A stretch of DNA of 64,000 nt, from positions 1,703,972 to 1,767,971 of the forward strand of contig CAWCDG010000004.1 in assembly GCA_963794325.1 (NCBI GenBank). The letters run 5' to 3'. Source of the stretch: an uncultured delta proteobacterium (lineage in GTDB: Bacteria > Desulfobacterota > Binatia > Binatales > Binataceae). The translations under genes and the position numbers were made by a program. Below are positions 24,524-43,766 of this stretch, piece after piece; the first letter of the stretch is position 1, and each line of letters opens with the position of its first letter. The notes under the pieces are model-generated. The model did not search any database and was not told where the DNA came from. It saw only the letters and a program-made list of their open reading frames with translations.

Positions 24524-25549
24524 CTACGGGGCCGGGAATACGTGGCACGACACGGCGTGTCCACCGCGCCCGGTTTCTAATTTCGGTTCGACGTTTGTAC
24601 AAACATCTTTCGCATAAGGGCATCTTGGATGGAAGGCACAGCCGGTCGGCGGGTTCATCGGGCTCGGCATCTCACCGGGCAGCTTGATGCGATCGGGCTT
24701 GTGCGCGGTGTCGATGGTCGGAATCGCTGAGAGCAGCGCGCGCGTGTAGGGATGCCGCGGGTTCAGATAGATCTCGTCGCGCGATGCGATCTCGACAATC
24801 TTGCCGAGGTACATGATCGCGACGCGATTGCTGATGTGCTCGACCACGCGCAAGTCGTGCGCGATGAACAGGTACGTCAGCTTCAGCTTGTCCTGCAGGT
24901 CCTGCAGCAGGTTGATTATCTGCGCCTGGATCGAGACGTCGAGCGCCGAGACCGGCTCGTCGAGCACCAGGAAGCGCGGGTTCACCGCGAGCGCCCGCGC
25001 GATTCCGATTCGCTGACGCTGCCCGCCGGAAAATTCGTGCGGCAGTCGATCCATCGCGTCGGCGCTCATCCCGACCATCGCGAGCAGCTCGGCGATTCGC
25101 CGCTCCTTTTCCACTCCGCGCGCGAGTTTGTGAATCTCGATTCCCTCGCCGACGATCGACCGCACCCGCATCCGCGGATTCAACGACGCGTACGGATCCT
25201 GGAACACCAGCTGCATCTGCTGGCGCAGCGTGCGAAGTTCCGCGCGGCCCAGCGTCGAGAGATCGCGGCCGTCGAAATAGACTTTGCCTTCGGTCGGCTC
25301 GAGCAGTTTCAGAATCAGTCGCCCCAGCGTCGATTTGCCCGAGCCCGATTCTCCGACCAATCCCAACGTTTCGCCCGGCTGGATCTCCAGGTTGACGCCC
25401 GCGACTGCTTTCACCGAAAGCTTTTTCCCGCCGATGATGCTCGTCGATCCCGCCGGAAACTCCTTGCTGAGATTCACGACGCGAACCAGCGGCGCGGTGG
25501 ACGCGCTCGCGACAGGCGCGATCGGGTTAGGCGCGGATGCAGGCGACAT
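24524..25549 (-). CDS. Oligopeptide/dipeptide ABC transporter ATP-binding protein (OppF/DppF-like)
   Basis: Walker A (GESGSGKST), ABC signature (LSGGQRQR) and Walker B ([11 protein letters not shown]). Has the C-terminal oligopeptide-ABC extension. Confidence 0.9.
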
Positions 25550-26489
25550 AGTGATTGGGGGCCTTTTGTTCGAGCGGTGGATCGGCTTCGGAGCATTTGG
25601 GGATTGCGCGCGGGCATCGCGGATGGAATCGGCAGCCTGACGGCGGACGCAACGAGCTCGGAATCGAGCCGGGGATCGCCTGCAAGCGATGGTGTCGAGT
25701 GCCGTCGATGCCCGGAATCGATCCGAGCAAACCGAGCGTGTACGGGTTGAGCGGATTTTGAAACAGATCGGCAGTCGGCGCCTGCTCCATCACGCGCGCC
25801 GCGTAGAGAATCGTCACGTCGTCGGCATACTCGGCGACGATTCCGAGATCGTGGGTGACGAGTATCACGGCGAGGCCGAGCCGGACCTGCAGTTCGCGGA
25901 TCAGGTCGAGAATCTGCGCCTGGATGGTGACGTCGAGCGCGGTGGTCGGCTCGTCGGCAATCAGCAGGCGCGGATTGCACGACAGCGCCATCGCGATCAT
26001 CACGCGCTGACGCATCCCGCCGGACAACTGATGCGGGTAGTCGTCGATGCGATGCTCGGGGTCGGCAATCCCGACCATCCGGAGCGCCTCGATCGTGCGA
26101 TTACGGGTCTCGGCGCGATTGGTGTGCTGATGCAGCCGGACCGCCTCGCCAATCTGGCTGCCGATGGTGAAGACGGGATTCAGCGAGGTCATCGGCTCCT
26201 GGAAGATCATTGCGATGCGCGCGCCGCGAACGTGGCGCATCTCGGGCTCGCTCAGCTTCAGCAGATCCTGATCCTCGAAAATCACTTCGCCGCCGACGAT
26301 GCGCGCCGACTCCGGCAGCAGCCGCATGATCGAGAGCATCGACGCCGACTTGCCCGAGCCCGACTCGCCAACGATTCCCAGCAGCTTCCCCGGCTCGACC
26401 GAAAAACTAACGCCGTCGACCGCGCGCACCTCTCCCGCGTCGGTAAAAAACGAAGTGCGCAGCGATTTAACTTCGAGCAGAGGCTTCAC
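25527..26489 (-). CDS. Oligopeptide/dipeptide ABC transporter ATP-binding protein (OppD/DppD-like)
   Basis: Walker A ([10 protein letters not shown]), LSGGMRQR and [11 protein letters not shown], plus the C-terminal oligopeptide-ABC extension. Confidence 0.9.
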
Positions 26490-26509
26490 GTGAGGTTCAG
26501 CGTATCATC

Positions 26510-26765
26510 GCCGCGCCGCAGCCATCCAGACGGATGCGACGTGGGGGAGTGGGGAAGGGGAAATCACTTTATCAAATGTGAAACCCGCGTACCGACGCGC
26601 GTCCGGTTCCCCTTCCCGCTCGGGAAGGGGTCAGGGGTTAGGTTCTTCGGCAGGGGTGACCCCTGCACCCAGTGATAAAGTGAAAAGTGAAAAGTGAGAA
26701 GCGCGAAATGTTGAGGACAACCGCTTCTGTTCCCCTTTCCCGCAGGAAAGGGGGAACAGAAGCCA
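26510..26765. repeat. Mosaic intergenic repeat block (several hairpin modules)
   Basis: Contains the modules CATCCAGACGGATGCGACGTGGGGGAGTGGGGAAGGGGAAATCACTTTATCAAATGTGAAACCC, GGTTCCCCTTCCCGCTCGGGAAGGGG, GGCAGGGGTGACCCCTGCACC and GTTCCCCTTTCCCGCAGGAAAGGGGGAAC. Each recurs elsewhere, for example at 32558-32730, 50668-50757, 53786-53845 and 56750-57100. Confidence 0.65.
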
Positions 26766-26800
26766 CACGGTCGCGACCGAGTAAAATCCGCTGGCGATAA

Positions 26801-28066
26801 CTATTGAACCTGGTGGACGATAGAGCTCACGAGGAAAATTGCGAGCGTGTTGGAACCGAATTCCGTCAGATAGAGCAATCGGTGGTCGGGCGATTCGGCC
26901 CATTGGCGCGGGAACACACCCGCATCGAAAGTGCCCACCGTCGCCGCGGCGCCGCCGCTTTTCAGCGCCGTTTCGAAATCGAGAATGCTGACCGTGCCGC
27001 CGGCCCCGACACACATATCGAATCGGTTCGTATTCGCCACCGCCATCAAACGCTTACTGAAAAAAGGCTGAGCGCCATCGGGTTCGATTCCTACCGGCGT
27101 GGTCGACAAGAGCGCATTGGTGGGATCGCTGATGAACTTGCTGGTGTCGAAAGCGAGCAGACTGTCAGAGTCACGCGCGGAAACCCATGCTACCGTATCG
27201 TTGTTCGTCAGAATGACCCGCGTCGGGGAGCATCCGGCCGGAATAGTCGCCATTACCTTGCCACTGTGGATATCCACCACCGACAATGTCCCGGGGGGAC
27301 CGGGATTCATGACCGGGAGACAGCCGTCACTGGCAATCTCGCAAGAGTTCTCGCCCGATAGCGCTTTCTCATTGGTGACGTAGAGACTACGGCCGTTGGC
27401 GGAGACCGCGAGTCCGACCGGCGCGCGGTCAACCAGGATTGTGCCGACGATCGGTTTTGGGCCCTTGCCGGAGGCGAAGGCGAGCGCCTGCTTGAAATCG
27501 ATCGCACTGACGGTATCGGGATCGCTATCCTTCTTGCCGGCAAACTCATTGGCTACGAAGATAATTCCGTTTTCGCCGGTTCTCTTGTCGACCGAAATTG
27601 CCACCTCGATCGCACTGGAATCGGTATGTATCGTTCCCATCGCGGCCTTGGAATCGTCGGCAATCGCCTTTCGCACATCGATAAACTGCACTCCGTCGGA
27701 AGTTCCGCCGGAAGGACACGATTTGCCTTGCTGGACCGTAACCAGCAGATAGCGCCCACCCTTGCTCATCGCCATGCCATGGGCAGAGCCGCAAGTCGAG
27801 ATGATGCCTTTGATGGTCGCGGAATTTTTCCTCTGCCGGATTACCTCGACGCCGCCGGTGGTTGTCGTAATGACCATCGAGACAAAGACGTAGCGCCCAT
27901 CTGCGGTTGTGACCGCCGCGAATGGAGAGCCCGGCAAGGGAATTTGCTGCTGGACCGGATTGATAGTTTGAGCGGACGAAGGATCCGAAATGCCTGGAAT
28001 CGCCGCGCACAAAATGATGGCGCTCAATACCACGCGGGACCACTTGAATTTATTTGATGATGACAT
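26801..28066 (-). CDS. Secreted YVTN-family beta-propeller repeat protein
   Basis: Signal peptide, then repeated YVTN-type blades (RYVFVSM, RSLYVTNEKA, RLLYLTEFGSNTLAIF). Confidence 0.7.
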   Translation of the reverse strand: MSSSNKFKWSRVVLSAIILCAAIPGISDPSSAQTINPVQQQIPLPGSPFAAVTTADGRYVFVSMVITTTTGGVEVIRQRKNSATIKGIISTCGSAHGMAMSKGGRYLLVTVQQGKSCPSGGTSDGVQFIDVRKAIADDSKAAMGTIHTDSSAIEVAISVDKRTGENGIIFVANEFAGKKDSDPDTVSAIDFKQALAFASGKGPKPIVGTILVDRAPVGLAVSANGRSLYVTNEKALSGENSCEIASDGCLPVMNPGPPGTLSVVDIHSGKVMATIPAGCSPTRVILTNNDTVAWVSARDSDSLLAFDTSKFISDPTNALLSTTPVGIEPDGAQPFFSKRLMAVANTNRFDMCVGAGGTVSILDFETALKSGGAAATVGTFDAGVFPRQWAESPDHRLLYLTEFGSNTLAIFLVSSIVHQVQ

Positions 28067-28295
28067 TCCCTCTTTGCGGCGAATTTTCGTTTCTGAGATT
28101 CGATCCTGCGATATGTAGCCGTTGGGGCAGTTGCGGCGGTCCCTCTACGGCAGGCAGACCGTCGCGGGCGGAGTTTGCTGGAGGCAGGCGACTATCGGCG
28201 TCAGGCCCGGAGCCGCCACTCCGACCAGTTCGGTTACGTTGGCGCCCTCGGAGTTCGGCACCCAGACGTTGCCCGAGCCAGCAGGTCGCGGGCCG

Positions 28296-29066
28296 TTAAT
28301 TCTTGGCGGTCGGCCCCTGCTTTAGCAACTCCTGGATCTTGGCGTCGAATTGCTGGTAAGGCATCGCACCGACGATGCGGACCCCGTTGAGGTTGCCATT
28401 CTGTACGTGCCCCAAGACGAACGAAGGGGTTCCCGTAATGCCCGCAGCTGTCCCTTCGGCGATGTCTTTGTCGATCACTGCCTTGTACTTGTCCGAATCG
28501 ACACAGGCCTTGAACTTGGTGACATCGAGCGACGACTTCCCGGCGTCATCGAGTATTTTGTCGGCTTGTAGCTGGCCCGAATTGGCGAATATCGTCTGGC
28601 GCATTTCCCAATATTTTCCCTGCTCGGCGGCACACCGACCGGCAACCGCGGCGCGCCGCGCATTCTCGTGGAATTCGAGCGGGAAGTCGCGGCTCACGAA
28701 TCGGAGCTTGCCGGTGTCGATGTAGTTGGTCTTGATCTGCGCGAACGCGCCGCTCTGAAAGCGCTGGCAGAACGGGCACTGGTAGTCGGTGTATTCGACC
28801 AGGACCAGCGGCGCGTTATCGCTGCCGACCGATAATCCGCCAGCGGGAAATGCATAGCTCACTTTGCTGTCTACGGGGCCACCCGGCGCGGGCGCGGTCG
28901 GCACCAAGGGGCGCTGCTCGAGGTCTTTGCGAATCGCCTTGAGCTCCTCGATTATTTGCTGCGCCTGCTCCGACGTAATGCTGTCAGCGGCCGCAGGTAG
29001 CGCACAAAAAAACAGCGCCACTACCGCAGCGAGTCCAATTACGCGTCGCCAGGTCTCGTTCATCAT
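28296..29066 (-). CDS. DsbA-like thiol:disulfide oxidoreductase (thioredoxin fold), secreted
   Basis: Signal peptide. CPFC active site (DYQCPFCQRF) and a DsbA-like helical insertion. Confidence 0.85.
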   Translation of the reverse strand: MMNETWRRVIGLAAVVALFFCALPAAADSITSEQAQQIIEELKAIRKDLEQRPLVPTAPAPGGPVDSKVSYAFPAGGLSVGSDNAPLVLVEYTDYQCPFCQRFQSGAFAQIKTNYIDTGKLRFVSRDFPLEFHENARRAAVAGRCAAEQGKYWEMRQTIFANSGQLQADKILDDAGKSSLDVTKFKACVDSDKYKAVIDKDIAEGTAAGITGTPSFVLGHVQNGNLNGVRIVGAMPYQQFDAKIQELLKQGPTAKN

Positions 29067-29403
29067 TGTCCATCCGTTTTGGTTGGTGATTCACTCCGCC
29101 GCTCCTCGCGAACCGGCGGAGCCGCCGGGTGACATACACATTTAAGGCGCGGCCTGACCCACCATTACTCCACCTTACACATAGCGACGGGTCGCTGCAC
29201 TCACGATTGGGAGATAACAGTATTTTGTTTGTCATAACAGCACCCTTTTGCTAAAGCAACTGTCGAAACCTCAAGACGTAGGAATCGAGTCCTAAAACGT
29301 CTGCGGCTCGCGCGGGAAGCACGACGGCTTCGCCTCCCCCAAACGCACCAGCCCTCACCTCATCACCTGCAGCAAGTGAGGTAGTGCCTTTTCGGAGGGA
29401 GCT

Positions 29404-32400
29404 ATGACTCGCATCGGAATCGTCGTGACTCGCTTGTTCGCGTTCACCTGCCTATTCTTCGCCGCGCTGTTGCTCATCACCGCTTGCACGGCGCTCGCAG
29501 AAAGCGACTGCAAGCCCGCGGCTCCGCTGCCGCAATCGAAGTGCAACAAGGATGCGCAATGTTGCACGGGCCTGGTTTGCGGGCCGGCTGGCAGTTCTCA
29601 AAATAATGCGACGACCCAATGCCAGCCAGGCTGCCGCATCGACGGCGTGTTCTATGCGAGCGGCGCCGTCAACGCCACACAGTGCCAGAGCTGCCAGCCC
29701 GCAGTGAGCACGAAGGCATGGAGTGATCTGGGCAACGGCACGAGCTGTAACGACCACAACGCCTGTACCCAGACCGACACATGCCAAGCTGGAGCGTGCG
29801 TCGGCAGCAAACCAATCGTCTGCACCGCCTCCGACCAGTGCCACACCGCCGGGACGTGTAATCCCAGTACGGGCGTGTGCTCGAACCCCGACAAGACCAA
29901 CGGCACGACCTGTAACGACGGCAACGCCTGCACCCAGACCGACACCTGCCAGAGCGGCACGTGCGCAGGCAGCAACCCGGTCGTCTGCACCGCCTCCGAC
30001 CAGTGCCACGTCGCGGGAACCTGTAACTCCAGCACGGGGGTGTGCTCGAACCCCAACAAGACCGACGGCACCGCTTGCAACGACAACAACGCCTGCACGA
30101 GCAACGACGTGTGCACCGGCGGCAGCTGCGCCGGTACCGCCGTCACCTGTACGGCATCTGACCAGTGCCACGGCGCGGGCACGTGCAATCCGCAGACCGG
30201 GTGCTCGAACCCGCCGCTAGCCAACGGCACAGCATGCAACGACGGCAACGCCTGCACGAGCAACGACGTCTGCACCGGCGGCAGCTGCGCCGGCGCCGCC
30301 GTCACCTGTACGGCATCTGACCAGTGCCACGGCGCGGGCACGTGCAATCCGCAGACCGGGTGCTCGAACCCGCCGCTAGCCAACGGCACGGCATGCAACG
30401 ACAACAACGCCTGCACGAGCAACGACGTGTGCACCGGCGGCAGCTGCGCCGGCACCGCCGTCACCTGTACGGCGTCTGACCAGTGCCACACGGCCGGGAC
30501 GTGTGACCCCAGCACCGGCGCGTGCTCGAACCCAGTGGCGGCCAGCGGCACGACCTGCGTCAACGCCAACGATTGCGTTTCGGGCACCGCCACCTGCAAC
30601 GGATCGGGACAGTGTATCGGGGGCACCAATGTCGCAAACGGCACTTCCTGCAATGGCGGTAACCTTTGTTTGACAGGCGGAAAGTGCTCGACGGGAACGT
30701 GCAGCGGCGGCACCCCTACGATTTGCTCCGGTCAAGACGCATGCCACACGGCTGCCACTTGTAATCCAGCTGATGGAACCTGTGCTGCCGCCACCCCGAT
30801 AGCAGATGGCCAGACCTGCAATAGCGTCGCTTGTCAGGTAGGCGGAACATGCACGGCCGGTGCGTGCAGCGGCGATAAGGCGGCGGCAGGGGGCAAGAAG
30901 GTCCTTTGTCGCCCGGCTGCAGTTGGGGCAGACGGCACGACCTGTGATGTTCCTGAATATTGCGATGGTACGAATGTAACCTGTCCGGCAGATGGTTACG
31001 TACCTGCGGGCACGCTTTGCCGAGCCATTGGGACTAATCCATCTTTTTCTACATACAATCTTTGTGACCAGGCAGAATATTGTACCGGGACGTCGAACGC
31101 TTGCCCGGCCGATACCGGCCTCGCGCTTGGTGTAGCGTGCGGAGGCGTGGGCTGCACTTCGACGGGATTTTGCCAAGGACGTTGCGGTGGAGTTAACGGG
31201 ATTGGTACCATTGCATGCAGCAGCGATAATGATTGCATGGGTCAGCCCGCAACCCGAACCCAATGTCTCCCGAGTACATTTGACCACGGCCTGCTGAAAT
31301 GTAGCGGCGGATTCAGCGAGCCCAACGGCCATACATGCACCGACAGCAATAGCGACGCTGGGACATGCGCAGATGGTCTTTGCAAAACGAGCTTTTGCAG
31401 CTACGACATCATGTGCCCTGATGGATACGTCTGTGACTCAAACCATGGTTGCGTCCTAGCTACTGCTGGTGGTTTGGGCGTCTCATGCACCGGTGACCCC
31501 ACCGGCGCCACCGTCTCCGGTACCTGCGGCTTTGATCCTGAGATCGGTACGAAAGACGACTGCTGCGCCGGGATGCAGGGAACCGGCCAAGGTGCCGCCG
31601 CAGGCCCTAACGTGTCTGGGCGCTGCGAGCAGTGCTGCAATAGCAGTACGTCAGTTAGTAGTGTTGTGAGTTGTGGTACTGACGATGTAACCCAGTGCTG
31701 TAACGGCAGATGCGCCGACACCGCCCACGACATCGACAACTGCGGCGGCTGTGCATATACCCCCCCCAGCCTCGGCGGCGGCACCAATTGCAATGAACTC
31801 CTCAGTGCTTGCTCCCCGAGTGCGACATGCAACCCGGATAATGGCGGCTGCATTTTGTCGGACGCTTGTGGCAGCACCACGGACGGGGGCCCGAATATTT
31901 GCCAAATCCCGACAGTGACGGTTACGAACTCCGCTTGTAGCGAATGCTACGCGACGAGCCTCACCGAGGTCGCAGCACTTGGAGTGACTTTTGGCAGGAA
32001 TTGTAGCACGGATGCTGATTGCCAGGGCGTTGCTGGGGCGTGCCGATTCTTCACGAGCTTCTGTGATGCAAACAGCGTGTCACCTGGCTTGGGCTGCTCC
32101 TCGAGCACTGGTTGCAGGAATGCGACTTTTAGCCAAGGTGCATGCAATGTCAATTTCACGTGCCTAACCACACTCGGGGTTACAACTTCTATCGCACCTG
32201 AGTGCACCACTTCGCCTTACACGTCCTGCGGGCTGATTTGTGCTACTGGAACTTTAAGCCAGGGGAACATCGGGACCCAATGTAGCGTAGATTCCGATTG
32301 CACCAGTGGACCGGACGGGTACCCCGGAGAGCGGTGTGAACTGACCAGCTGTCCAATTTCCCCTGGCGCGGCGCTGGCCACGTCCGGCGGCCCAGTGGCA

Positions 32401-32469
32401 GCTCAGTGCTTAATTAATGCCACCTACACCTGCCAGATACCTCTAGGAGGCGATCAATTCCAGCAGTGA
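29404..32469 (+). CDS. Secreted hyper-cysteine tandem-repeat protein (1021 aa; resembles myxobacterial-type Cys-rich repeat surface proteins)
   Basis: Signal peptide. At least six tandem 53-55-aa units of the form CNDxNACTxxDxCxxGxCxGxxxxCTASDQCHxAGTCNPxTGxCSNP. The rest is Cys/Gly/Thr-rich low-complexity sequence. There are far more than 100 cysteines in total. Confidence 0.8.
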   Translation: MTRIGIVVTRLFAFTCLFFAALLLITACTALAESDCKPAAPLPQSKCNKDAQCCTGLVCGPAGSSQNNATTQCQPGCRIDGVFYASGAVNATQCQSCQPAVSTKAWSDLGNGTSCNDHNACTQTDTCQAGACVGSKPIVCTASDQCHTAGTCNPSTGVCSNPDKTNGTTCNDGNACTQTDTCQSGTCAGSNPVVCTASDQCHVAGTCNSSTGVCSNPNKTDGTACNDNNACTSNDVCTGGSCAGTAVTCTASDQCHGAGTCNPQTGCSNPPLANGTACNDGNACTSNDVCTGGSCAGAAVTCTASDQCHGAGTCNPQTGCSNPPLANGTACNDNNACTSNDVCTGGSCAGTAVTCTASDQCHTAGTCDPSTGACSNPVAASGTTCVNANDCVSGTATCNGSGQCIGGTNVANGTSCNGGNLCLTGGKCSTGTCSGGTPTICSGQDACHTAATCNPADGTCAAATPIADGQTCNSVACQVGGTCTAGACSGDKAAAGGKKVLCRPAAVGADGTTCDVPEYCDGTNVTCPADGYVPAGTLCRAIGTNPSFSTYNLCDQAEYCTGTSNACPADTGLALGVACGGVGCTSTGFCQGRCGGVNGIGTIACSSDNDCMGQPATRTQCLPSTFDHGLLKCSGGFSEPNGHTCTDSNSDAGTCADGLCKTSFCSYDIMCPDGYVCDSNHGCVLATAGGLGVSCTGDPTGATVSGTCGFDPEIGTKDDCCAGMQGTGQGAAAGPNVSGRCEQCCNSSTSVSSVVSCGTDDVTQCCNGRCADTAHDIDNCGGCAYTPPSLGGGTNCNELLSACSPSATCNPDNGGCILSDACGSTTDGGPNICQIPTVTVTNSACSECYATSLTEVAALGVTFGRNCSTDADCQGVAGACRFFTSFCDANSVSPGLGCSSSTGCRNATFSQGACNVNFTCLTTLGVTTSIAPECTTSPYTSCGLICATGTLSQGNIGTQCSVDSDCTSGPDGYPGERCELTSCPISPGAALATSGGPVAAQCLINATYTCQIPLGGDQFQQ
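29745..30560 (+). repeat. Coding tandem DNA repeat (period ~159-165 bp, about 5 units) inside the Cys-rich gene
   Basis: Near-identical units starting gc(a/t)tgcaacgac at 30074, 30233 and 30392; more diverged units lie upstream. Confidence 0.7.
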
Positions 32470-32500
32470 GTGACTAATTCAGACAAGCGGTCGTGCATTA

Positions 32501-32545
32501 CCAGGTTGACTCTTACGCGACAAGAACGCGTAAGAGTCAACCTGG
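32501..32545 (+). terminator. Perfect 19-bp stem hairpin 32 nt downstream of the Cys-rich gene (no U-tract)
   Basis: ccaggttgactcttacgcg-acaagaa-cgcgtaagagtcaacctgg. Confidence 0.4.
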
Positions 32546-32557
32546 TGCTCGCCGCGA

Positions 32558-32730
32558 CGCCGCCATCCAGACGGATGCGACGTGGGGGAGTGGGGAAGGG
32601 GAAATCACTTTATCAAATGTGAAACCCGCGGTGGGTTTCACACTTCCTTCGGCAGGGGTGACCCCTGCAACCAGTATCCTACAACCGGTTCCCCTTCCCG
32701 CTCGGGAAGGGGTTAGGGGTTAGGTTCTTC
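32558..32730. repeat. Mosaic intergenic repeat block (direct-repeat partner of 26510-26650)
   Basis: Repeats about 75 bp of 26513-26590 almost exactly (CCATCCAGACGGATGCGACGTGGGGGAGTGGGGAAGGGGAAATCACTTTATCAAATGTGAAACCCGCG). It also carries the GGCAGGGGTGACCCCTGCA and GGTTCCCCTTCCCGCTCGGGAAGGGGTTAGGGGTTAGG modules. Confidence 0.65.
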
Positions 32731-32840
32731 GTGCGTGCGCGCGATTCCGAATACCTCGCCCGTTACTTTACGGGAGAGGCGGCCGGCGGGCGCAGCCGCC
32801 GGTAGGTGAGGGTTCCGGGCCACATCGCAAGAGCTGGCCT

Positions 32841-32945
32841 AATGACTTTTTGTGTCATTCTTGAGCGCTTCTGGATAACTCCGCTTTCACCAGCCGAAGC
32901 CCTGAGCCCAGCCGAGCGGGGAAGAATCCCGGATTCTTCTTTGCC
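32841..32945. repeat. Degenerate MITE-like hairpin (GTGTCATTCTTGAGCG variant) plus a gaagaatcccggattcttc palindrome
   Basis: aatgactttttgtgtcattcttgagcgcttctgg and the palindrome at 32920-32940. The GC content drops to the right of this point. Confidence 0.4.
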
Positions 32946-33199
32946 TCGCTCACTGAAGGGGAGCCGTCGCGACGCGCGTCCGCGTGCGGCGAGTGAGGGA
33001 CGTTTGCGCGGCGCGATTGTCTCGCGCGTCGCGATCAGATCCCAAGCTAAATACGAACGTTTGACGTGCGAGAAGTAAAATCAAGGCAAGCAGTTGCCTC
33101 GTCACAAAATCGCTGAGGTTTCAGTGGCCGAATGTTTCAGAACCGTACATCGCACGCGGGAAGGTTGCTCAGTGTATAATTCTGAACCCTAACGCGCCT

Positions 33200-33796
33200 A
33201 TGCCAAAGAAGAGAAATATACGGACGCAACGGCCAGACGATGCGTTTTCGATGGGGCCAATCTCGTTCGCTCGCTTCGGAAAAAATCTTGTCTGGAAGAG
33301 CGATTGGCCTGAAGGCGCCTTTAATGAAATGCAAGAGCAGCGAATCCAACACTATCCCAAAACCGTAGAGAAGATTGACAAGCTCATATCTGAGATCACA
33401 AGCCTCATCGGCGAGCTGCCGCCTGATAGGCTTCTACATCGAGCTTGGTGGGAAATGACCCATCTGCACAGGAAAGTTGCCAACGAAACCAGCGTCGCGT
33501 CAGACGAGAGCGCTTCGGTTCGAATGATCGACTACGTTCAAAGCGTTATCGCTGCTGCGCCGCGAGAGCATAGTCCACGAGAAGAGTTAACAGAAGAAGA
33601 GTGGGCAACGCTACGAGAAAAGGTCGACGAGCTTTTCCGAACGGTCTCCTTTGACTATCAATTCTGCCGTACCGCAAAGAACAAAGCCGAAGATCCGAAT
33701 TTCGACAAAGACTTCGAAGAATTCCGATTGCGGCTGAGATCTACTGGTGCAACGTCAGGGGTAAGAGATATCAGGTCCATGAAACCGCCTACCTGA
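33200..33796 (+). CDS. Hypothetical protein, fragment 1 of a probable single ~815-aa ORF; low-GC region
   Basis: No recognisable domain. The downstream frame is already open from 33655. Adding one base in the aaa run near 33781 fuses this ORF to the next. Confidence 0.4.
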   Translation: MPKKRNIRTQRPDDAFSMGPISFARFGKNLVWKSDWPEGAFNEMQEQRIQHYPKTVEKIDKLISEITSLIGELPPDRLLHRAWWEMTHLHRKVANETSVASDESASVRMIDYVQSVIAAAPREHSPREELTEEEWATLREKVDELFRTVSFDYQFCRTAKNKAEDPNFDKDFEEFRLRLRSTGATSGVRDIRSMKPPT

Positions 33797-33801
33797 AGGA
33801 T

Positions 33802-34608
33802 ATGTTCCTTCCACATTCTGACGTGTTGCAGGAACTATTTGGCATCTCTGGCGAGCAGTTCGTCGATGAGATTACTAAAATCTGGCATGTACTATCGTTT
33901 GGCATCAGCGATGCGGCCGAGTCATTCGGTCGATTTCAGGACGATGTAATGGACGCGCTCGACAGGAAGAGGATCGGCTTACCACCGCCGACTGAAGATG
34001 AAATGTTAGCCTTGACGTCTGAGGTCGTGAAGGAACACGGATGGGAAGATCGCCAAGATGACGTTTTAGGCCGCTTCTTTGGTATGGATCTTTTCGATCT
34101 TCAAAAAACCACAACACTCCCGCGTCGCTTACTGGACGAGTTATCTTGGTCGCCCGGAGAGGAAGTGGAATTCTTTGCAGAAGGTGCGTATAGCGGTTGG
34201 CCTCTTCGTGTCTGGCCGATCTTCAAGCGTCCTTTCATCCGATTGGACGGCCGATACTATTGTTTCGATCTCTATAGCCTTCTCGACAATCTTTACCGCG
34301 TCATGCAGCGCCTGATCCGAAATCTTAAGCCATCCTATGAGCAAACTTGGAACCGCATTCAGCAGAAAGCATCGGAAGACCTTCCTTTCAAATACTTAGA
34401 GACCTTGCTGCCAGGGGCAGATGTATGGAGGCAGGTTTACTATCGCGGTAAAACAGTCACGGGCGCCAGCGAATGGTGCGAGACTGACGGACTCCTCATT
34501 TATGATGACCACCTGTTCGTCATCGAGCGAGAGGTGGGGCCTTCACGTACACGCCTCCTGCGATCGATTTTCCTGCCTATGTTGCATCACTTAGGAACCT
34601 CGTCTTAA
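33802..34608 (+). CDS. Hypothetical protein, fragment 2 of the probable single ORF
   Basis: No recognisable domain. Contains the acidic segment DGLLIYDDHLFVIEREVG. A one-base change in the tttt run near 34567 would fuse it to the 34644 ORF. Confidence 0.4.
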   Translation: MFLPHSDVLQELFGISGEQFVDEITKIWHVLSFGISDAAESFGRFQDDVMDALDRKRIGLPPPTEDEMLALTSEVVKEHGWEDRQDDVLGRFFGMDLFDLQKTTTLPRRLLDELSWSPGEEVEFFAEGAYSGWPLRVWPIFKRPFIRLDGRYYCFDLYSLLDNLYRVMQRLIRNLKPSYEQTWNRIQQKASEDLPFKYLETLLPGADVWRQVYYRGKTVTGASEWCETDGLLIYDDHLFVIEREVGPSRTRLLRSIFLPMLHHLGTSS

Positions 34609-34643
34609 AGCCCGCAACGCAGGGCAAGCGATTCGTTGAGTAT

Positions 34644-34955
34644 TTGAAAAGTGCCGACGCGGTTCCTTTGTTCGACAGAGATCACAAGCAGGTCGGTGAG
34701 CTACGCAAGAAGAACTTTCGCCACATCACAATATGCCCGGTAACCCTCGACCCATTCACCGAAATAGCCGCTCAGGTACAACATCTCCGTAAGATTGGTG
34801 TCGACGTTGGTTCCGAGCCCATTTGGGTCGTATCTCTAGACGATCTCCGCGTGTACGCGGACATTTTCGAAAATCCCCTGCTTTTCCTGACACTACGTGG
34901 AGCAGAGAATGCAAGGTTTCCGGTCGAACGTTATCAGGTCCGACGACGAGCTTGA
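34644..34955 (+). CDS. Hypothetical protein, fragment 3 of the probable single ORF
   Basis: TTG start. Its frame is open from 34509. It overlaps the next ORF by 59 nt in another frame; a one-base change at the ttt run near 34916 would fuse them. Confidence 0.35.
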   Translation: MKSADAVPLFDRDHKQVGELRKKNFRHITICPVTLDPFTEIAAQVQHLRKIGVDVGSEPIWVVSLDDLRVYADIFENPLLFLTLRGAENARFPVERYQVRRRA

Positions 34956-35652
34956 TCATCTGGGCCTCTACCTAAAGCACAACCATTTCACTACCTATGC
35001 TCAGGAAATTCACGGTGACTCCGATGCCAGAATCAGGTTCGTCGGATACCGGGCGAGTATCGACAAATTTTTTAGTGAGCGCATGCTTGACCCAACCACA
35101 CCCTGCCCTTTAAAGCAGGAAATCCCACCACGCATTCTGGAGATTGTCGAGTTCCTATCGCGCAGCAACAAACCGGGCCGCGCGGAAATCGCTGCCTTTC
35201 TGCTGGATATTGACGCCGTAAGGCGTACGCCGGTCGCGAGGAACATCGATGAGGAATTGTTGAGGCAGCCCACCACTAAGCGACCGATGCCATTCTCGAT
35301 GCATGCTGGCGTGAATCTGACAGTCTTCTGCTGGACCAACGCTTGGGCCCAGAGACGAGCTCCCCTTGCGCTTTACCACACGCGGACAGTGTTCCTGATC
35401 CACGAAGAGTCGCGTCGCCTTTTGCTTGAACTAAGTTACACAGACTCCGGCGTTCTCAAAGACATCGACTGGAATTGGGTAGACTCAGCCAGCATACCTT
35501 CGCATGAGTTGCCAAGCTTGCGCGCCAACGCAGACGGGTTGCGTCGCGAAAGGATCACCAAGGCGAAGGGCGCAAAGGGGAAAATCGAAAGAAACGATCC
35601 GTGTCCTTGCGGCAGCGGCAGGAAGTACAAGCGATGCTGCCTGGGGCGATAG
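34897..35652 (+). CDS. Hypothetical protein with C-terminal SEC-C zinc-binding motif, fragment 4 of the probable single ORF
   Basis: GTG start. The C-terminus DPCPCGSGRKYKRCCLGR matches the SecA C-terminal (SEC-C) metal-binding motif. Nothing else is recognisable. Confidence 0.45.
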   Translation: MEQRMQGFRSNVIRSDDELDHLGLYLKHNHFTTYAQEIHGDSDARIRFVGYRASIDKFFSERMLDPTTPCPLKQEIPPRILEIVEFLSRSNKPGRAEIAAFLLDIDAVRRTPVARNIDEELLRQPTTKRPMPFSMHAGVNLTVFCWTNAWAQRRAPLALYHTRTVFLIHEESRRLLLELSYTDSGVLKDIDWNWVDSASIPSHELPSLRANADGLRRERITKAKGAKGKIERNDPCPCGSGRKYKRCCLGR

Positions 35653-35699
35653 CAAGCCAATGAAAGGGATAGAGTTCTCTCGTTGCTCTCTCTGCGCGA

Positions 35700-35966
35700 T
35701 ATGCATCGCATCAAGCAATCCTGCTTTAGTTGTCCCTCACCCGCGCCGGAGGCGCGGCCTCTCCCCACGAACGGGCGAGGCTAAGAACCCAGGGTCCCTC
35801 TGCGGAGCCTGCCCTGAGCGAAGTCGAAGGGGTCGGGATGACACAAGGACTCAGGAGTGGCTGCGCAGGATCCGGATGCGCACCTTGAATCGCGCGCGAA
35901 AAAAATCGCGCGCTGAACAAGGTCCCTCTCCTTAAATCCTCTCCCGTCGGGAGAGGGGAAGATAAG
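35700..35966. repeat. Cluster of short hairpin repeats (CTCTCCCGN6CGGGAGAGG..ATAAG family and a GTGTCATCCCGACCCCTTCGACTTCGCTCAGG variant)
   Basis: ctctcccgtcgggagaggggaagataag at 35937-35966 recurs at 47264-47300. The interval 35812-35845 is a variant of the MITE-like family. Confidence 0.45.
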
Positions 35967-36016
35967 AAAAACACATCGCCTGCTCAGTTTCGGTATCAAC
36001 GCCAAGCCGGAAAACT

Positions 36017-36044
36017 ATTCGTGTTTCGTTCTCCTGAACTTTAT
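36017..36044. repeat. 28-bp direct repeat (left copy) flanking the IS1595-family transposon-like unit
   Basis: attcgtgtttcgttctcctgaactttat is identical to 38828-38855. Confidence 0.7.
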
Positions 36045-36224
36045 GGGGATTAGTAGTTTGTTGACACCATTCCTGCTAATCTGGCGTCGGCGTGACAGGC
36101 CGACGACAACCGTTGACATTCGCACCTGCTATATTCGCTGTCTGATCGCCTTGCGTTTTTAAGTGCGGTCTATAACCAAGGACGTTCTCCGCTTCGTCGG
36201 AGTTCGTGTTATAAGGTCAGCGTC

Positions 36225-37070
36225 ATGGCAAGATTGCGGTTTCGGTTTGAATTGAGGCGGGACGCCAAGGGCGTCCAATTGCAGAAGCTCGCCAAGATCG
36301 CCGAGGAGACGCAACGTTTCTTGCGAATGATGGCGAAGGACGTAGAGAACGACCGGCTTCAGGAAGATTGGGTTGCCGTTAATTTCTTGGACCACTCGAT
36401 CGGTTACGACTTAGAATTCATCGGTGACGCCGACGAAGACGAAGCACGAATCTTCCGCCGCGCTGTTCTCCATGTTGCAAATTGGACTACGAACGGTCAC
36501 TCGCGCGAGGGTGTGCAAGGTGTTCGGAAGGAAACGCTTCTCCAATTCGCAAAGATCGCAGAGCCGCTCGAATCTACAGAGAAAATAGATTGGGGGTTTT
36601 TTAACGGAACCGATCCCGATCTTCCTACCGACGCTCCCTTGGACTGGCGTTCCTTAACTAAGAGCCAGGCTCTCGCTGTCTCTGAGCGATTGAGCCAAAT
36701 AATTGAATACCGAGGAATGATTCAGGGAATCATTCACTCTCTGTACAAAGAATCGTCGCCTCCGTACTTCGACGCTAGGCAGTTATCTACTCAAGATATA
36801 GTTAAGTGCTTGTATAAACAGGAAGACTACAGACTTGTAGTTAACTTGTTGCAACGGCGGGACGCCGTAGTAATAGTCTCTGGACTCATTAAGGCACGTC
36901 GCCTAGATCGCAAAATCACAGAGATTCGTATCGAACGAATGCGTTCCACAGAACCATTGTCCGATGCGGAGTTTGCGAAGTTGCAGGGCGCTGCACCGGA
37001 GTTGACAGGACGACTAAGCACTGACGATTTCATTGAGCGCCAGCGCCGTAGAGACAATGGCGACGAATAA
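36225..37070 (+). CDS. Hypothetical protein (281 aa), transposon cargo gene 1
   Basis: ATG at 36225. No recognisable domain or HTH. It overlaps the downstream PIN gene by 14 nt, so the two are probably co-transcribed. Confidence 0.45.
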   Translation: MARLRFRFELRRDAKGVQLQKLAKIAEETQRFLRMMAKDVENDRLQEDWVAVNFLDHSIGYDLEFIGDADEDEARIFRRAVLHVANWTTNGHSREGVQGVRKETLLQFAKIAEPLESTEKIDWGFFNGTDPDLPTDAPLDWRSLTKSQALAVSERLSQIIEYRGMIQGIIHSLYKESSPPYFDARQLSTQDIVKCLYKQEDYRLVVNLLQRRDAVVIVSGLIKARRLDRKITEIRIERMRSTEPLSDAEFAKLQGAAPELTGRLSTDDFIERQRRRDNGDE

Positions 37071-37629
37071 ACAACAAGCGTACATGGATTCTTGCTGCTT
37101 TATCGAATACGTAAAGCACAAGGTGGGCATTCCATTAAGTACCGAGCGCGACAACGAAGCTTGGTATATTGGCCAATTGCTACAAGCATCGGCTGACCGA
37201 GACATTGAAATATACACTTCTACGTTAACCGTCGCCGAATGCACTCACGCTGAAGGCGATATAAGTGATGAAGTTCAGGATTGGTTTATTCGGCTTCTAA
37301 CGTCGGGGAAGCACGTAATATTAGTAGAGCCAGATATTTTCGTCGCAGAACTCGCTAGAGACCTACGATGGAGACATAACATTCGCCTAGGGGGTGCGGA
37401 TGGCTTGCACGTCGCTTCAGGTATCGATAGGGCTTGCGTCGAATTCTTGACGTTGGAAGGCGAGAAAAAGAATAACGCGATTCTCAGAAACAAGGGTGAG
37501 ATCGTAAAGCTGGGCATGACTCCTCGGCATCCCTCCGATACAACCTGTCTTAGCGAGGAGTACCGACAACAGGTCGTGCCTGGTGTGCCTCCAGCGCCAC
37601 GAAAAAGGAAGATGGGAAAGAAGAAGTAA
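37057..37629 (+). CDS. PIN-domain (VapC-like) putative ribonuclease, transposon cargo gene 2
   Basis: Acidic residues sit in PIN-like positions: AYMDSCCFIEY (Asp 1), STLTVAEC (Glu) and GGADGLHVASGIDRAC (Asp 3 and 4). The C-terminal tail is basic. The start could be ATG 37057 or 37084. Confidence 0.5.
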   Translation: MATNKQQAYMDSCCFIEYVKHKVGIPLSTERDNEAWYIGQLLQASADRDIEIYTSTLTVAECTHAEGDISDEVQDWFIRLLTSGKHVILVEPDIFVAELARDLRWRHNIRLGGADGLHVASGIDRACVEFLTLEGEKKNNAILRNKGEIVKLGMTPRHPSDTTCLSEEYRQQVVPGVPPAPRKRKMGKKK

Positions 37630-37838
37630 GGCGCTATCTAGCGCTTCTGCTTTTGCGCCTTATCGATTTTTTCTTTCGGGACGTTCACCAGGTGCCGCAT
37701 CATCCGGTCGAATTCTGACATGTCCGCGTTTTTCAGTGCTTCGCGGAGTTCTTTTGTCTTCGCGCGGATTGACGGGGAATCTGAAGTCGCCTTGGGCACG
37801 TCGCCACTTTAGCGAATTCACAGGCACGCGGCTACGGA

Positions 37839-38774
37839 CTAGACGTTTGATATGAGTTCAGCAAACGGATCGTCGTCGTGACGCCGATTGTGCCGATACG
37901 TGAACTCCGACAGATAAAGCGGTAAGTAGTCTTTCGATACTTTATGATAGCTGCCCATGATGCCGCGCCGGAGCAACGACCAGAACGATTCAATCGTCTG
38001 CGTATGCACACGACCGCGCACGTACTCATCGTTCTTGTGCGTAACGAAATCGTGCTTGAAGCCCATCCGATCCAGATTCCGGTAACGGAAGCTCTCATCA
38101 GTCGCGATCAGATCGACCTTACTCGAAACCGTCTTTTTGACGAAATCATCATACGTTCGGAAATCGGCATCTTCGACCATCTGGCAGACTACGTTGCCTT
38201 TGCGGGCAATGGCTCCGATGACTTCGGTCTTTCCGACAGGGCCGCGCCGATTGGCGCGTTGGCTCTTGTGCTTGTTGCGCTCCAAGCCGCCAAGGTAAAC
38301 CTCATCGATCTCGACCACGCCCATCAGTTGTTCCCACTGCGAATCTTTCATCGCGGCGCGCAGTCTCATGCACTGATACCAAGTCGTGTGATAGTTGTTC
38401 AGGTGCTTCGAGCCGTACATCATCCGGTGAAGCTGGAGCGCACTGATTCCCTTCTTCGACGTGAGCATCAAGTATCCGATTTTGAACCACGATTTGAGCG
38501 GGCGTTTCGTGTTCTCAAAAATCGTGTGCGTGATCACGCTGAACCTGTAGCCGTTCTGCTTGCCGCACGTGAGCACTTCGCCAGTCTCTTTGTTGACCGA
38601 CTCTTTGCCGCTCTTGCAGACCCAATTGAATGGACGCGCCTTGAGTTCGTAAACCTTTTCGTTCCCGCATCGCGGACAGGTAACCTTGCCATCCGGCCAG
38701 CGCATATCCTTGACGTACTGGCGACAAGCTTCTTCGGTCGGGAACCGTTGATCGAAAGCATCTAGCGTTTGCAT
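37839..38774 (-). CDS. IS1595-family transposase (ISXO2-like DDE transposase with N-terminal zinc ribbon)
   Basis: N-terminal CPRCGN...C zinc ribbon and a DDE_Tnp_IS1595 core (VEIDEVYLGG ... IATDESFRY ... HTQTIESFWSLLRRGIMGSYHKVSKDYLPLYLSEFTYRHNRR). Confidence 0.9.
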   Translation of the reverse strand: MQTLDAFDQRFPTEEACRQYVKDMRWPDGKVTCPRCGNEKVYELKARPFNWVCKSGKESVNKETGEVLTCGKQNGYRFSVITHTIFENTKRPLKSWFKIGYLMLTSKKGISALQLHRMMYGSKHLNNYHTTWYQCMRLRAAMKDSQWEQLMGVVEIDEVYLGGLERNKHKSQRANRRGPVGKTEVIGAIARKGNVVCQMVEDADFRTYDDFVKKTVSSKVDLIATDESFRYRNLDRMGFKHDFVTHKNDEYVRGRVHTQTIESFWSLLRRGIMGSYHKVSKDYLPLYLSEFTYRHNRRHDDDPFAELISNV

Positions 38775-38827
38775 ACTGATCAGAATAGCGGATTAGCGAG
38801 TCGGTGTCAACAGCCTACTAATCCCCG

Positions 38828-38855
38828 ATTCGTGTTTCGTTCTCCTGAACTTTAT
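38828..38855. repeat. 28-bp direct repeat (right copy) flanking the transposon-like unit
   Basis: attcgtgtttcgttctcctgaactttat is identical to 36017-36044. Confidence 0.7.
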
Positions 38856-38858
38856 TGC

Positions 38859-38886
38859 CAAAAACGTTTCACGTGAAACGTTTTTG
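38859..38886. repeat. Perfect 28-bp palindrome CAAAAACGTTTCACGTGAAACGTTTTTG
   Basis: Self-complementary with a CACGTG core. A second copy of the 24-bp core lies 135 bp away. Confidence 0.7.
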
Positions 38887-38995
38887 CACAAAAAGCGAAC
38901 AAAATCAGGCGCTTGTGAAATCTGAAACCCGGGAATCGCACCAATTTAATGTGACGATCGGTCGGCGCCGATCAACTCGATGTTATCGGCGTCCG

Positions 38996-39019
38996 AAAAC
39001 GTTTCACGTGAAACGTTTT
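38996..39019. repeat. Second copy of the perfect palindrome AAAACGTTTCACGTGAAACGTTTT
   Basis: Identical 24-bp core, 20 nt downstream of the oppC stop. Confidence 0.7.
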
Positions 39020-39038
39020 GCTCCTGGACGCCGGTTAA

Positions 39039-40122
39039 TCAGGTGGCGTTAGCGGGGTCCAGGCGGTCTCTTAGGTGGTCGCCCAGGAAGTTAAACGACA
39101 TTACGGCCAGGAAGATGAAGATTCCCGGGATTAAGATCCAGGGGTAGCGGGCCAGGTTTTGGACGTCCTGGGCTTGGGCCAGGAGGTTGCCCCAGCTGGC
39201 GGCGGGTTCCTGGATGCCGAGGCCCAACAGCGACAGGGCGCTTTCGCCTAAGATGAAGCCGGGGATTGAGAGGGTGGCGGCGACGATTGCGTAGCCCATC
39301 ACCGACGGGATGATGTGGCGGGTGATGATGCGCCATCGCGAGGCGCCGAGCGCGCGGGCTGCTTCGACGTACGGCCGCGAGCGCACCGAGGACGCCATCC
39401 CGCGGATGATTCGCGCGAAGCCGGCCCAACTGATGAAGCTCATGATCGCGACGATCATGAAAAACGTCGCGACCGCGCCAAGTCCCGACGGAATCACCGC
39501 CGCGAGCGCCAGTAAAAAATAGAATGACGGCAGCGACATCTCGATTTCGGACCATCGCATGATCAGGAAATCGACTGTGCCGCCGATGTATCCCGACAGC
39601 GCGCCGACCGTGATGCCCAGTGAAAAAGTGATCAGCACGCCGATCAGCCCGACGCACATGCTCACGCGCGAGCCGTAAACGATTCGCGACCAAAGGTCGC
39701 GGCCCAAGGCCGTCGCTGCCGAGCATGAAGTACGGCACGCGCTCGCTGTCAGTGGTGAACAGGTGCCAGTGCGAGAACAGGTGGATGTCGAGCCGCTGCG
39801 AATTGTCGGCGGCGAAGGTGCGCGCACTGCTGTCCTGCATATGCATCGGATGCGTATAGAAAATACTGCGCGACCATTCGGACGGCGCGCTCAGGTGAAG
39901 CGACATCGGCGGACAATCGGGCATCTCGCGATTCTGATACGCGGGATCGTAGCTCGCGAAGAACGGCGACGCAGCGGCGAGCAGGTAGAATACGGCGAGG
40001 CAGATTGCGGAAAAGCGCACCGTCCGCGACGCGAGACGCCACTCGCGCGCGATGCTCAATGTTCTCGGCGCGGATACCTCAGCGCCTTGTAGATTTGCCT
40101 GCAATGCGGGAACGGCGTTCAT
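39039..40122 (-). pseudogene. Oligopeptide/dipeptide ABC transporter permease (OppC/DppC-like) with a single-base frameshift near 39700
   Basis: The N-terminal part is in ORF 39091..40122 and the C-terminal part in ORF 39039..39827. The conserved GSDGLGRDLWSRIVYGSRVS motif is split by one extra base in a gggcc run. This may be a real pseudogene or a homopolymer sequencing indel. Confidence 0.7.
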
Positions 40123-42907: not shown

Positions 42908-43766
42908 CGTCGAGGCTCAAGTTTATTACATTGGCTCCTGGAGCCGGGGTCAACACGAAAGTCGAATCGGGGATGACGCCATTGACGATCGGCCGGAGAT
43001 AGCGAAAGGTCACGCGGCTGCCGGCCTCTGGAAAAGTCGCATCGACGACGTACGGGAAGGTCACTCCGCCGATATCATGATAGTCGCTGTACCGCACTTC
43101 GTAACTGACGCGGCCGTCGGCGCCCGTCTCGCGCACCATCGCGAGATTGCCGTCGGTGAATCCAAGCTCGCGAGTTCCCGCCGAGCTGTTGCCGTACGTC
43201 GCGATAATCATATCGCCGTCTTTCGATACCAGATCCGGAGGTGTGCTTAGCGGGAAATCAGGCGGCGCGAGGCCCATCAGCAGGCCGACGGCGTCAGTGG
43301 GCGCCATCGGGATTCGCACATATTTGTAGAGCGTGTCGGCGTTCGCCTGCCCGCGCATGAAGCGATTCTGCGCGGGCTCGAAGATGGCGAGGTCCGTGCC
43401 CTGCGCTGCGAGCAACAATGCGACGCCGAACGGCGACATCGCCTCGACGCGGAGATTACCCGGCCGCTTGGCGACGATTTCCTCTTTCGCCTTCACATGC
43501 TGAGTGCCCGCCGTATATTCCATCACGGCAGGACTCTGCACGCACGCGAGTTTTCGGTCGCGATCTACCAGCGCCGCCGTCATTTTCCCGGCCTGGTATT
43601 TGTCCTCGGTCCAGCCCGGGATTGGCGTCGCGTCATCCGGAACGGCGGGAGTGTGAATGATGATGCAGGCGGACGTTCCAACCATCGCCAGCAGCAGCAT
43701 GGATGCGACCGCCAGCGAGATTGTTTTTCGGCGCCGGGCGCGTTCAGTGGCCCGCGCTGGCGGCAT
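42879..43766 (-). CDS. Hypothetical lipoprotein (possibly DUF4292/LolB-like)
   Basis: ORF 42879..43892; likely start at the ATG at 43766 (MPPARA...). Lipobox LAMVGTSAC. Family assignment is weak. Confidence 0.4.
   Translation of the reverse strand: MPPARATERARRRKTISLAVASMLLLAMVGTSACIIIHTPAVPDDATPIPGWTEDKYQAGKMTAALVDRDRKLACVQSPAVMEYTAGTQHVKAKEEIVAKRPGNLRVEAMSPFGVALLLAAQGTDLAIFEPAQNRFMRGQANADTLYKYVRIPMAPTDAVGLLMGLAPPDFPLSTPPDLVSKDGDMIIATYGNSSAGTRELGFTDGNLAMVRETGADGRVSYEVRYSDYHDIGGVTFPYVVDATFPEAGSRVTFRYLRPIVNGVIPDSTFVLTPAPGANVINLSLDDGSPFPNKS

Follow-up and report, generated by a model that had tools for sequence, protein, structure and literature searches.

Integration hotspots and defence islets of bacterial chromosomes have conserved flanks that enclose unrelated, low-GC (guanine-cytosine) cargo in each strain, including toxin-antitoxin (TA) pairs, STAND NTPases and insertion sequences (IS). 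Among TA systems, typical VapB antitoxins are proteins of 70-90 aa with AbrB, RHH, Phd or HTH domains. IS1595-family elements that carry passenger genes form an established class, the 'transporter IS', according to PMC3129680, which cites Siguier, Gagnevin & Chandler 2009. The locus described here is a 12.5-kb insert between oppC and oppD of an Opp/Dpp-type ABC transporter operon, located in a 64-kb stretch (the window) of contig CAWCDG010000004.1 from an uncultured member of the Binataceae. It resembles the chromosomal hotspots in its conserved flanks and unrelated cargo, but it interrupts a single operon, separating permease from ATPase genes, instead of lying between two operons or next to a tRNA gene, and it has no dedicated integrase. 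The favoured reading, at a rough probability of 0.75, is that the 25-100 bp spacer of an ancestral oppABCDF operon served as a recurrent landing site and was filled by at least three separable events.

The oppC-oppD junction as an insertion hotspot

The domain set of an Opp/Dpp-type transporter is complete in the window, with a family-5 solute-binding protein, two BPD_transp_1 permeases and two ATPases with an oligo_HPY C-terminal region. The genes are placed as follows:

24524-25549, minus strand: oppF, intact ABC ATPase (Pfam ABC_tran 3e-36, oligo_HPY 7e-21)
25527-26489, minus strand: oppD, intact ABC ATPase (Pfam ABC_tran 1e-29, oligo_HPY 5e-20)
39039-40122, minus strand: oppC, permease (BPD_transp_1/OppC_N), disrupted by one extra T at 39707
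40124-41104, minus strand: oppB, intact BPD_transp_1 permease
41159-42907, minus strand: oppA, intact SBP_bac_5 (family-5 solute-binding protein)

An earlier note on this DNA had described the operon as split between oppC and oppD by DNA without transporter genes. The gene layout and Pfam domains confirmed the split, which leaves 12.5 kb between genes of an otherwise recognisable five-gene set, and the scanned open reading frames (ORFs) of this interval matched no transporter family in Pfam. The same note had set a comparison with related genomes as the test of its claim, with conserved genes between oppC and oppD in relatives counting against it. Metagenome contigs were scanned with OppA, which yielded 59 related loci (47-93% OppA identity), and the window proteins were placed in them by tblastn. 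Adjacent oppC and oppD, separated by a spacer of 25-97 bp, were observed in 11 distinct related loci (L082, L086, L090, L097, L105, L110, L112, L113, L119/L120, L123 and L127; 12 were fetched, and L119 and L120 are identical). OppD in these loci is 80-98% identical to that of the window, and tblastn placed the proteins of the window insert in none of these loci. These compact junctions indicate that the ancestral operon was a contiguous oppABCDF. A scan of genome contigs with OppD was uninformative for synteny; the matches listed were only 51-61%-identical ATPases from scattered phyla.

Other relatives carry DNA at the same junction:

L092: insert of 364 bp
L126: insert of 290 bp
L094/L096: insert of 806 bp with a Phd/YefM-like antitoxin and a VapC PIN toxin
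L100/L101: insert of 3.1 kb (L100 13848-16975), GC 0.53, with a 465-aa nSTAND1/AAA_16 NTPase and a 307-aa ORF without Pfam hit
L102: insert of at least 3.7 kb that encodes a TumE toxin and a TumA-like HVO_A0114/MarR protein and, at the end of the contig, an IS1595 transposase
L001: insert of at least 3 kb

Unrelated inserts at one junction in different relatives argue for a recurrent intra-operon hotspot, and the window region is best described on this comparison as a nested accumulation and not as a single island. The NTPase of L100 is possibly an Avs-like defence gene within the hotspot. A short repeated element containing GTCATTCT(T/A)GAGCG...GAAGAATCCCG is present in the window (32799-32867), in L001 (12353-12446) and in L102 (4917-4960). 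Its recurrence in the variable junction DNA of three genomes suggests that it is probably a dispersed REP/MITE-like repeat (repetitive extragenic palindrome or miniature inverted-repeat transposable element).

A putative promoter in front of oppD

The junction retains one conserved feature on its oppD side:

26499-26509, minus strand: extended -10-like motif GATGATACGCT in the ancestral oppD leader, ending 9 nt before the oppD start codon

All 17 loci compared, irrespective of gap size, have the sequence GATG[AC]TA...T (TGnTAnnnT, the shape of an extended -10 element) ending 9-10 nt ahead of the oppD start codon, and where the spacer is most compact, it overlaps the region of the oppC stop. 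This conservation suggests that oppDF has its own promoter with a very short or absent leader. Such an internal promoter would remove polarity, and the spacer would tolerate insertions because oppDF keeps a promoter of its own next to the oppD start. No Shine-Dalgarno-like sequence is visible at the motif.

Composition and parts of the insert

The GC content is 0.58-0.65 over 26.5-33 kb and 0.50-0.52 in most of the interval 33-39 kb, with 0.565 in the bin at 35-36 kb; outside these intervals it is about 0.61. In tetranucleotide usage, background windows correlate with the rest of the window at 0.953 +/- 0.022, and the 3-kb windows that start at 28-36 kb reach only 0.55-0.73 (z -10 to -18.5). 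GC at third codon positions (GC3) is 0.51-0.56 in the low-GC genes against 0.80 in oppD/F. The GC drop reported earlier was thus reproduced at 33-39 kb, and the compositional profile that had been proposed as a check deviates sharply from the flanks. Like a classical island, the insert is absent from close relatives and deviant in composition. The empty sites and the composition support its description as acquired DNA, with the caveats that half of the insert (26.5-32.7 kb) has a host-like GC and that the whole is not a classical integrase/tRNA island. The term 'composite' proved apt, with at least three separately bounded parts. The mosaic repeats of the earlier note are real and were refined to the boundaries given below, and its IS1595 transposase, 24-bp inverted repeats and 28-bp direct repeats were all recovered. 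A search of 24-43.5 kb with Rfam returned no RNA family.

The part next to oppD has a host-like GC (26.7-32.5 kb) and encodes secreted proteins:

26508-26673: mosaic hairpin-rich repeat, copy 1, including about 30 nt of ancestral oppD-upstream sequence (CCGTCTGGATGG...GGCGA)
26801-28066, minus strand: 421-aa secreted beta-propeller-like protein with an N-terminal hydrophobic signal-like segment
28296-29066, minus strand: 256-aa DsbA-like thiol:disulfide oxidoreductase (Thioredoxin_4 8e-32, DSBA 1e-14; CPFC motif)
29404-32469, plus strand: 1021-aa secreted Cys-rich repeat protein with 128 Cys (12.5%) and 159-165-nt tandem repeats at 29833-30533
32500-32546: perfect 20-bp-stem hairpin directly after the 1021-aa gene
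32549-32733: mosaic repeat, copy 2, in the same orientation as copy 1 and with an additional hairpin unit of 41 nt, differently placed

The mosaic repeats, about 170 bp long, consist of sub-blocks of 82, 47 and 29 nt that are 97-98% identical and follow each other in rearranged order. The repeat core had no match in 100 shuffles, and one sub-block is also found at the oppC-oppD junction of L092. Both copies start with about 30 nt of the oppD leader known from L100, L113, L119 and L127, and only copy 1 runs on into the -10-like motif and oppD. The presence of the ancestral leader in both copies argues that the attachment region was duplicated upon entry of the module. All three proteins begin with N-terminal signal-like segments. 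The 421-aa protein has weak NCBIfam beta-propeller matches (TIGR03866 2.5e-9; YncE, lactonase and PQQ-associated types) and no Pfam hit, and the 1021-aa protein has only a sub-threshold Disintegrin match in Pfam. Since up to 64 disulfide bonds are possible in the latter, the neighbouring DsbA-like oxidoreductase would form a sensible functional unit with it.

The low-GC segment that follows (about 32.9-36.0 kb) contains a decayed gene:

33200-35652, plus strand: NERD/SEC-C pseudogene of about 815 aa, with three frameshifts near 33733, 34535 and 34880

Four ORF fragments (198, 268, 103 and 251 aa) constitute this one gene. They are collinear, in three frames, with residues 2-809 of an 812-aa plasmid protein of Photobacterium damselae (WP_086368691.1, pFPPDNB1-4), annotated as 'SEC-C metal-binding domain-containing protein', which has a weak NERD match and a C-terminal SEC-C motif. 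The window copy resembles this plasmid family in its 36-60% identity and its C-terminal SEC-C motif and differs from it in being a pseudogene with three frameshifts. Sequencing errors were considered as the cause of the frameshifts and rejected: L146, an independent assembly, has the same sequence at all three sites, and the gene is therefore a genuine pseudogene. What had been called a SEC-C ORF does contain the SEC-C motif, and it is only the last fragment of the longer frameshifted gene.

The IS1595 element and its target

The third part is a transporter IS within the low-GC DNA beside oppC:

36017-36044: 28-bp direct repeat, left copy (the target 'unit'), perfect
36045-38826: IS1595-family transporter IS of 2,782 bp, with left inverted repeat (IRL) 36045-36068 and right inverted repeat (IRR) 38803-38826
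37839-38774, minus strand: IS1595-family DDE transposase, 311 aa (PF12762 1e-36, PF12760 3e-13, NF033547 7e-50)
38828-38855: 28-bp direct repeat, right copy, perfect
38861-38884 and 38996-39019: perfect 24-bp palindrome AAAACGTTTCACGTGAAACGTTTT, present twice, which belongs to the IS target and to the 218 bp in common with L001

The transposase combines a DDE_Tnp_IS1595 (ISXO2-like) domain with an N-terminal Zn_ribbon_IS1595 domain. The 24-bp terminal inverted repeats are complementary at 22 of 24 positions and recur in L149 and L155, and a promoter scan placed a -35 TTGACA inside the IRR. In its transposase domains, short inverted repeats, -35 sequence in one end, unrelated passengers and size of 2.8 kb, the element resembles the transporter IS of the IS1595 family; it differs in its 28-bp duplication and its OB-fold/PIN cargo.

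Sister transposases 85-86% identical to that of the window are found in two unrelated loci. One group (L149-L154, 86%) is flanked by a ParE toxin gene and a MoxR/VWA pair, and the other (L155-L159) by an H+-PPase gene and an aldo-keto reductase gene. Both sisters show the family-typical 8-bp duplication, AACTAAAA, between a homologue of the unit (…TTCGTTCTCCTGAACT) and the palindrome AACGTTTCACGTGAAACGTT. The window IS adjoins the unit at the homologous nucleotide (…GAACTTTAT before the boundary and GGGG after it), with the palindrome just past it. The target motif can be written as TTCGTKTTTCGTTCTCCTGAACT-N4-12-AACGTTTCACGTGAAACGTT. L001 has a single 28-bp unit adjacent to the palindrome and no IS; its first 218 bp after oppC are common with the window, and past the unit its DNA is different (about 68% identity in the next 22 nt). 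In the set of 159 fetched loci, the palindrome core is confined to the surroundings of these IS elements (L149 about 7349-7372, L155 about 4420-4443) and to L001. This confinement, with three independent elements in one target of about 55 bp (unit, A-rich stretch and palindrome), argues for sequence-specific targeting. To our knowledge, such target specificity is stronger than that known for the IS1595 family.

The palindrome is AT-rich in a 61% GC genome, and the copy nearest to oppC is embedded in a longer hairpin (CGGCGTCC...GGACGCCG). A terminator, an operator and a repeat element are candidates for its nature.

The duplication flanking the window copy is 28 bp long, not the 8 bp seen in sisters L149 and L155. 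An attachment (att) core, or a part of a longer inverted repeat, was tried as an explanation of the 28-bp repeat and rejected, since in the sisters the homologous cut is flanked by an 8-bp duplication and the unit stands on only one side of the element. A more distant IS1595 copy in L130 (56% identical) has no recognisable inverted repeats, and its duplication length is unreadable.

The IS in L146 is about 99% identical to that of the window in the cargo half and only about 81% in the transposase half (37.5-38.8 kb), which suggests separate histories of the modules. The identity breaks near the convergent PIN/transposase intergenic region, which may reflect either module exchange between IS copies or a chimeric assembly. 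The sister IS at L149 5703-7240 (also in L150-L154) carries three other passenger ORFs of 235, 181 and 67 aa without Pfam hits.

The OB-fold/PIN pair carried by the IS

The cargo of the window IS consists of two overlapping genes:

36225-37070, plus strand: 281-aa OB-fold protein of an uncharacterised family
37057-37629, plus strand: 190-aa VapC-like PIN protein; the first 14 nt of its gene are also the last 14 nt of the 281-aa gene

The PIN start was set from a 100%-identical 190-aa database protein (P0024). The 281-aa protein had no match in Pfam, PADLOC, PHROGs or NCBIfam, only noise in a profile search against PDB sequences, no match in plasmids by tblastn and no relatives in viral contigs in the family alignment. 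A k-mer-limited search returned 23 relatives, and a profile search returned 626 representatives of 50%-identity clusters, 207 of them at E<=1e-30; nearly all members are about 270 aa long. One of them has a sub-threshold tRNA_anti-codon OB match. The protein combines an N-terminal alpha/beta region with an OB fold resembling SSB, RPA and the anticodon-binding domains of class IIb aminoacyl-tRNA synthetases. Its conserved C-terminal tail (GxAPxLTGxLSTxxFI..R) is modelled with low confidence, as would fit a segment that folds upon binding a partner.

The PIN protein had no match in PADLOC, PHROGs or NCBIfam. Its own Pfam PIN match (E 0.002) lies below the gathering score, and 16 of its 19 non-identical homologues (17 of the 20 listed) match PF01850. 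The AlphaFold2 model (mean confidence, pLDDT, 88.8) has its best fold matches among VapC and FitB toxins. E61 and D115 are invariant in the family, and most members have D or E at position 11, so the protein has the conserved acidic active-site residues of a PIN-domain toxin. A set of Cys and His residues (C13, C14, C62, H64, H118 and C127) is also invariant or nearly so in this subfamily and may form a metal-binding site; we know of no such set in characterised VapC proteins.

In all contexts examined (the window, L142, L143-L145, a Logan contig and L155-L159), a 281-aa homologue is followed by an overlapping PIN gene, and in L141 it is followed by a 55-residue PIN remnant. The neighbourhoods are mobile or defence-like, with a DUF3987 integrative element, a resolvase and an AcrVA2-like gene beside an Mrr/methylase gene, and a type I restriction-modification (R-M) system among them. 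By its PIN fold, acidic residues, overlapping co-directional upstream partner and surroundings, the pair resembles VapBC and is most likely a VapBC-like module for addiction or abortive infection whose partner is atypically large. It differs from VapBC in that this partner is a 281-aa OB-fold protein; no small upstream DNA-binding antitoxin (AbrB, RHH, Phd or HTH) was found in the pair, and it was therefore not filed as a VapBC member. The PIN protein would act as an RNase toxin, and the translationally coupled OB protein would neutralise or direct it through the conserved C-terminal tail. In this role the pair would stabilise the element, and it could protect the host in the manner of abortive infection.

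A different role of the pair, as accessory factors of the transposon, was also weighed and is unlikely. Here the OB protein would bind single-stranded or structured DNA, and the nuclease would aid target recognition or processing at the unit and palindrome. The pair does accompany 85%-identical transposases in two elements although the cargo proteins are only 37% identical, which implies a long association, and the unusual specificity of the IS for a hairpin-forming motif would also suit this role. However, the sister in L149-L154 has the same target and 8-bp duplication with different cargo, and the pair occurs without an IS1595 transposase among the called genes in L142 (integrative element), in L143 (R-M genes) and, as a remnant, in L141 (type I R-M). 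The PIN fold and gene order also match VapC toxins, and the VapBC-like module is preferred.

The insert had earlier been proposed as the most plausible location of an undescribed system. The only candidate is the OB-PIN pair, which is best read as an atypical VapBC-like module on an IS. The proposed check with PADLOC-DB v2 returned no system in the insert, and the sole matches of the 281-aa, PIN, 421-aa propeller and 1021-aa Cys-rich proteins and the NERD/SEC-C fragments were to a 19-residue SEC-C motif. Tentatively, the pair may be an undescribed two-gene TA or abortive-infection family in which an anticodon-binding-type OB protein gates or targets a VapC-like tRNase. This family would be spread in Binatus by a site-homing IS1595 element, with the oppC-oppD spacer as one place of accumulation.

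Flanking genes

The window oppC is readable only across two frames, with GGCCTTGGGCC where L001 has GGCCTGGGCC. L001, a contig from another sample, is 99.8% identical to the window over 12.3 kb and encodes an intact OppC of 360 aa; the other 21 differences over this distance are mostly substitutions. The extra T may reflect either an inactivated transporter in the window strain or a single-base assembly error. Two conserved genes lie immediately upstream of oppA, at 43744-45639 (589-631 aa) and about 42879-43700 (273 aa), corresponding to L001 5592-7361 and 7405-8226. Synteny of the larger gene with oppA is kept in almost all related loci. No Pfam hit is on record for the L001 genes of 589 aa and 273 aa, and the earlier statement that the insert contains every unassignable protein of the window is thus inaccurate. 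Exact-protein look-ups of the window OppF, OppD, transposase and 421-aa propeller protein found no record. OppB belongs to a 90%-identity cluster together with proteins from metagenome-assembled genomes named Candidatus Binatus sp., which makes the organism a member of the Binatota.

Proposed history of the locus and alternative explanations

According to the favoured reading, a low-GC segment would have arrived first beside oppC by horizontal acquisition, bringing the NERD/SEC-C gene and a cassette of the 28-bp unit and the 24-bp palindrome. The NERD/SEC-C gene would then have decayed through its three frameshifts. In a second event, the 2.8-kb IS1595 transporter IS would have entered the cassette by DDE transposition; the cassette appears to be a preferred target because two sister elements elsewhere occupy the same motif. 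In a third event, the 6-kb host-GC module of secreted proteins would have settled on the oppD side between its direct repeats of about 170 bp, and the oppD leader would have been duplicated at this entry.

Several points weigh against this history. A generic promoter scan did not call the oppD leader motif, because the motif lacks a -35 element, and an oppDF promoter is suggested by resemblance to the consensus. The host-GC module could have moved in from another place in the same genome and need not be foreign, and the tetranucleotide deviation at 29-32.5 kb arises partly from one repetitive Cys/Thr/Gly-rich gene. Since L001 diverges beyond the unit, it is an unoccupied target and not a perfect pre-insertion allele. 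The 28-bp duplication (the canonical 8 plus 20), against 8 bp in the sisters, could result from an unusually long stagger or from a later duplication. The oppD-side junction of the insert was found in no close relative, so the order and number of insertions are deduced from boundaries and composition. For the cargo of the IS, PADLOC has no model of the OB-PIN pair, and its function is read by analogy with VapBC.

The whole 12.5 kb could instead be one integrative island, such as an integrative conjugative element, an integrative mobilizable element or a prophage remnant, that entered by a single site-specific recombination event. The insert is one contiguous gap of deviant composition, and its direct repeats are readable as att sites, but this explanation is very improbable. 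Integrase, recombinase and relaxase domains are absent from the 18 principal ORFs scanned, and neither a tRNA nor a tmRNA gene was found in the 64-kb window. No repeat pair brackets the whole insert: the 170-bp pair encloses 26.7-32.5 kb and the 28-bp pair only the IS. The GC content is bimodal (0.58-0.65 against 0.50-0.52), and the 99.8%-identical L001 has the first 218 bp after oppC without the IS and with other DNA beyond.

An assembly artefact, that is, a chimeric contig of a metagenome-assembled genome, is equally hard to sustain. The source is indeed a metagenome assembly, and related assemblies break at these repeats: L001 stops 2.8 kb beyond the unit, and L146 stops precisely where the IS ends. 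However, the junction of oppC, the 218 bp and the unit is reproduced in L001 (100% identical), and that of the low-GC flank, the unit and the IS is reproduced in L146 and L147 (L147 99.95%). The oppD-side boundary keeps the ancestral leader, which is also present in L100, and other relatives have genuine inserts at the same junction within single contigs.

The least probable explanation, that the insert is ancestral and the compact junctions arose by repeated deletion, could invoke precise excision between the direct repeats flanking sub-segments, but short spacers occur in 11 distinct loci with OppA identities of 59-87%, the closest sampled relative (OppD 98% identical over the 128 N-terminal residues on its contig) is compact, the spacers share a conserved core without scars of the window repeats, and the occupied sites hold unrelated cargo.

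Significance

A landing-site history of the oppC-oppD spacer remains the preferred account. The locus is real, composite and mostly ordinary, and its modestly novel components are the OB-PIN pair and the target-specific IS with its 28-bp repeat. Current ideas on islands, IS elements and TA modules are not overturned, and the locus is a well-documented case rather than a new principle. It provides a multi-genome example of an insertion hotspot inside an operon, from a phylum of uncultured soil bacteria. Some lineages have this spacer empty, and in others it holds unrelated TA pairs, a STAND NTPase, IS elements or a 12.5-kb composite. The OB-fold/PIN pair is moderately widespread and its two genes are always linked. 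The suggested rule is that an internal promoter that makes distal genes independent may also make the spacer in front of them a safe harbour for incoming DNA.

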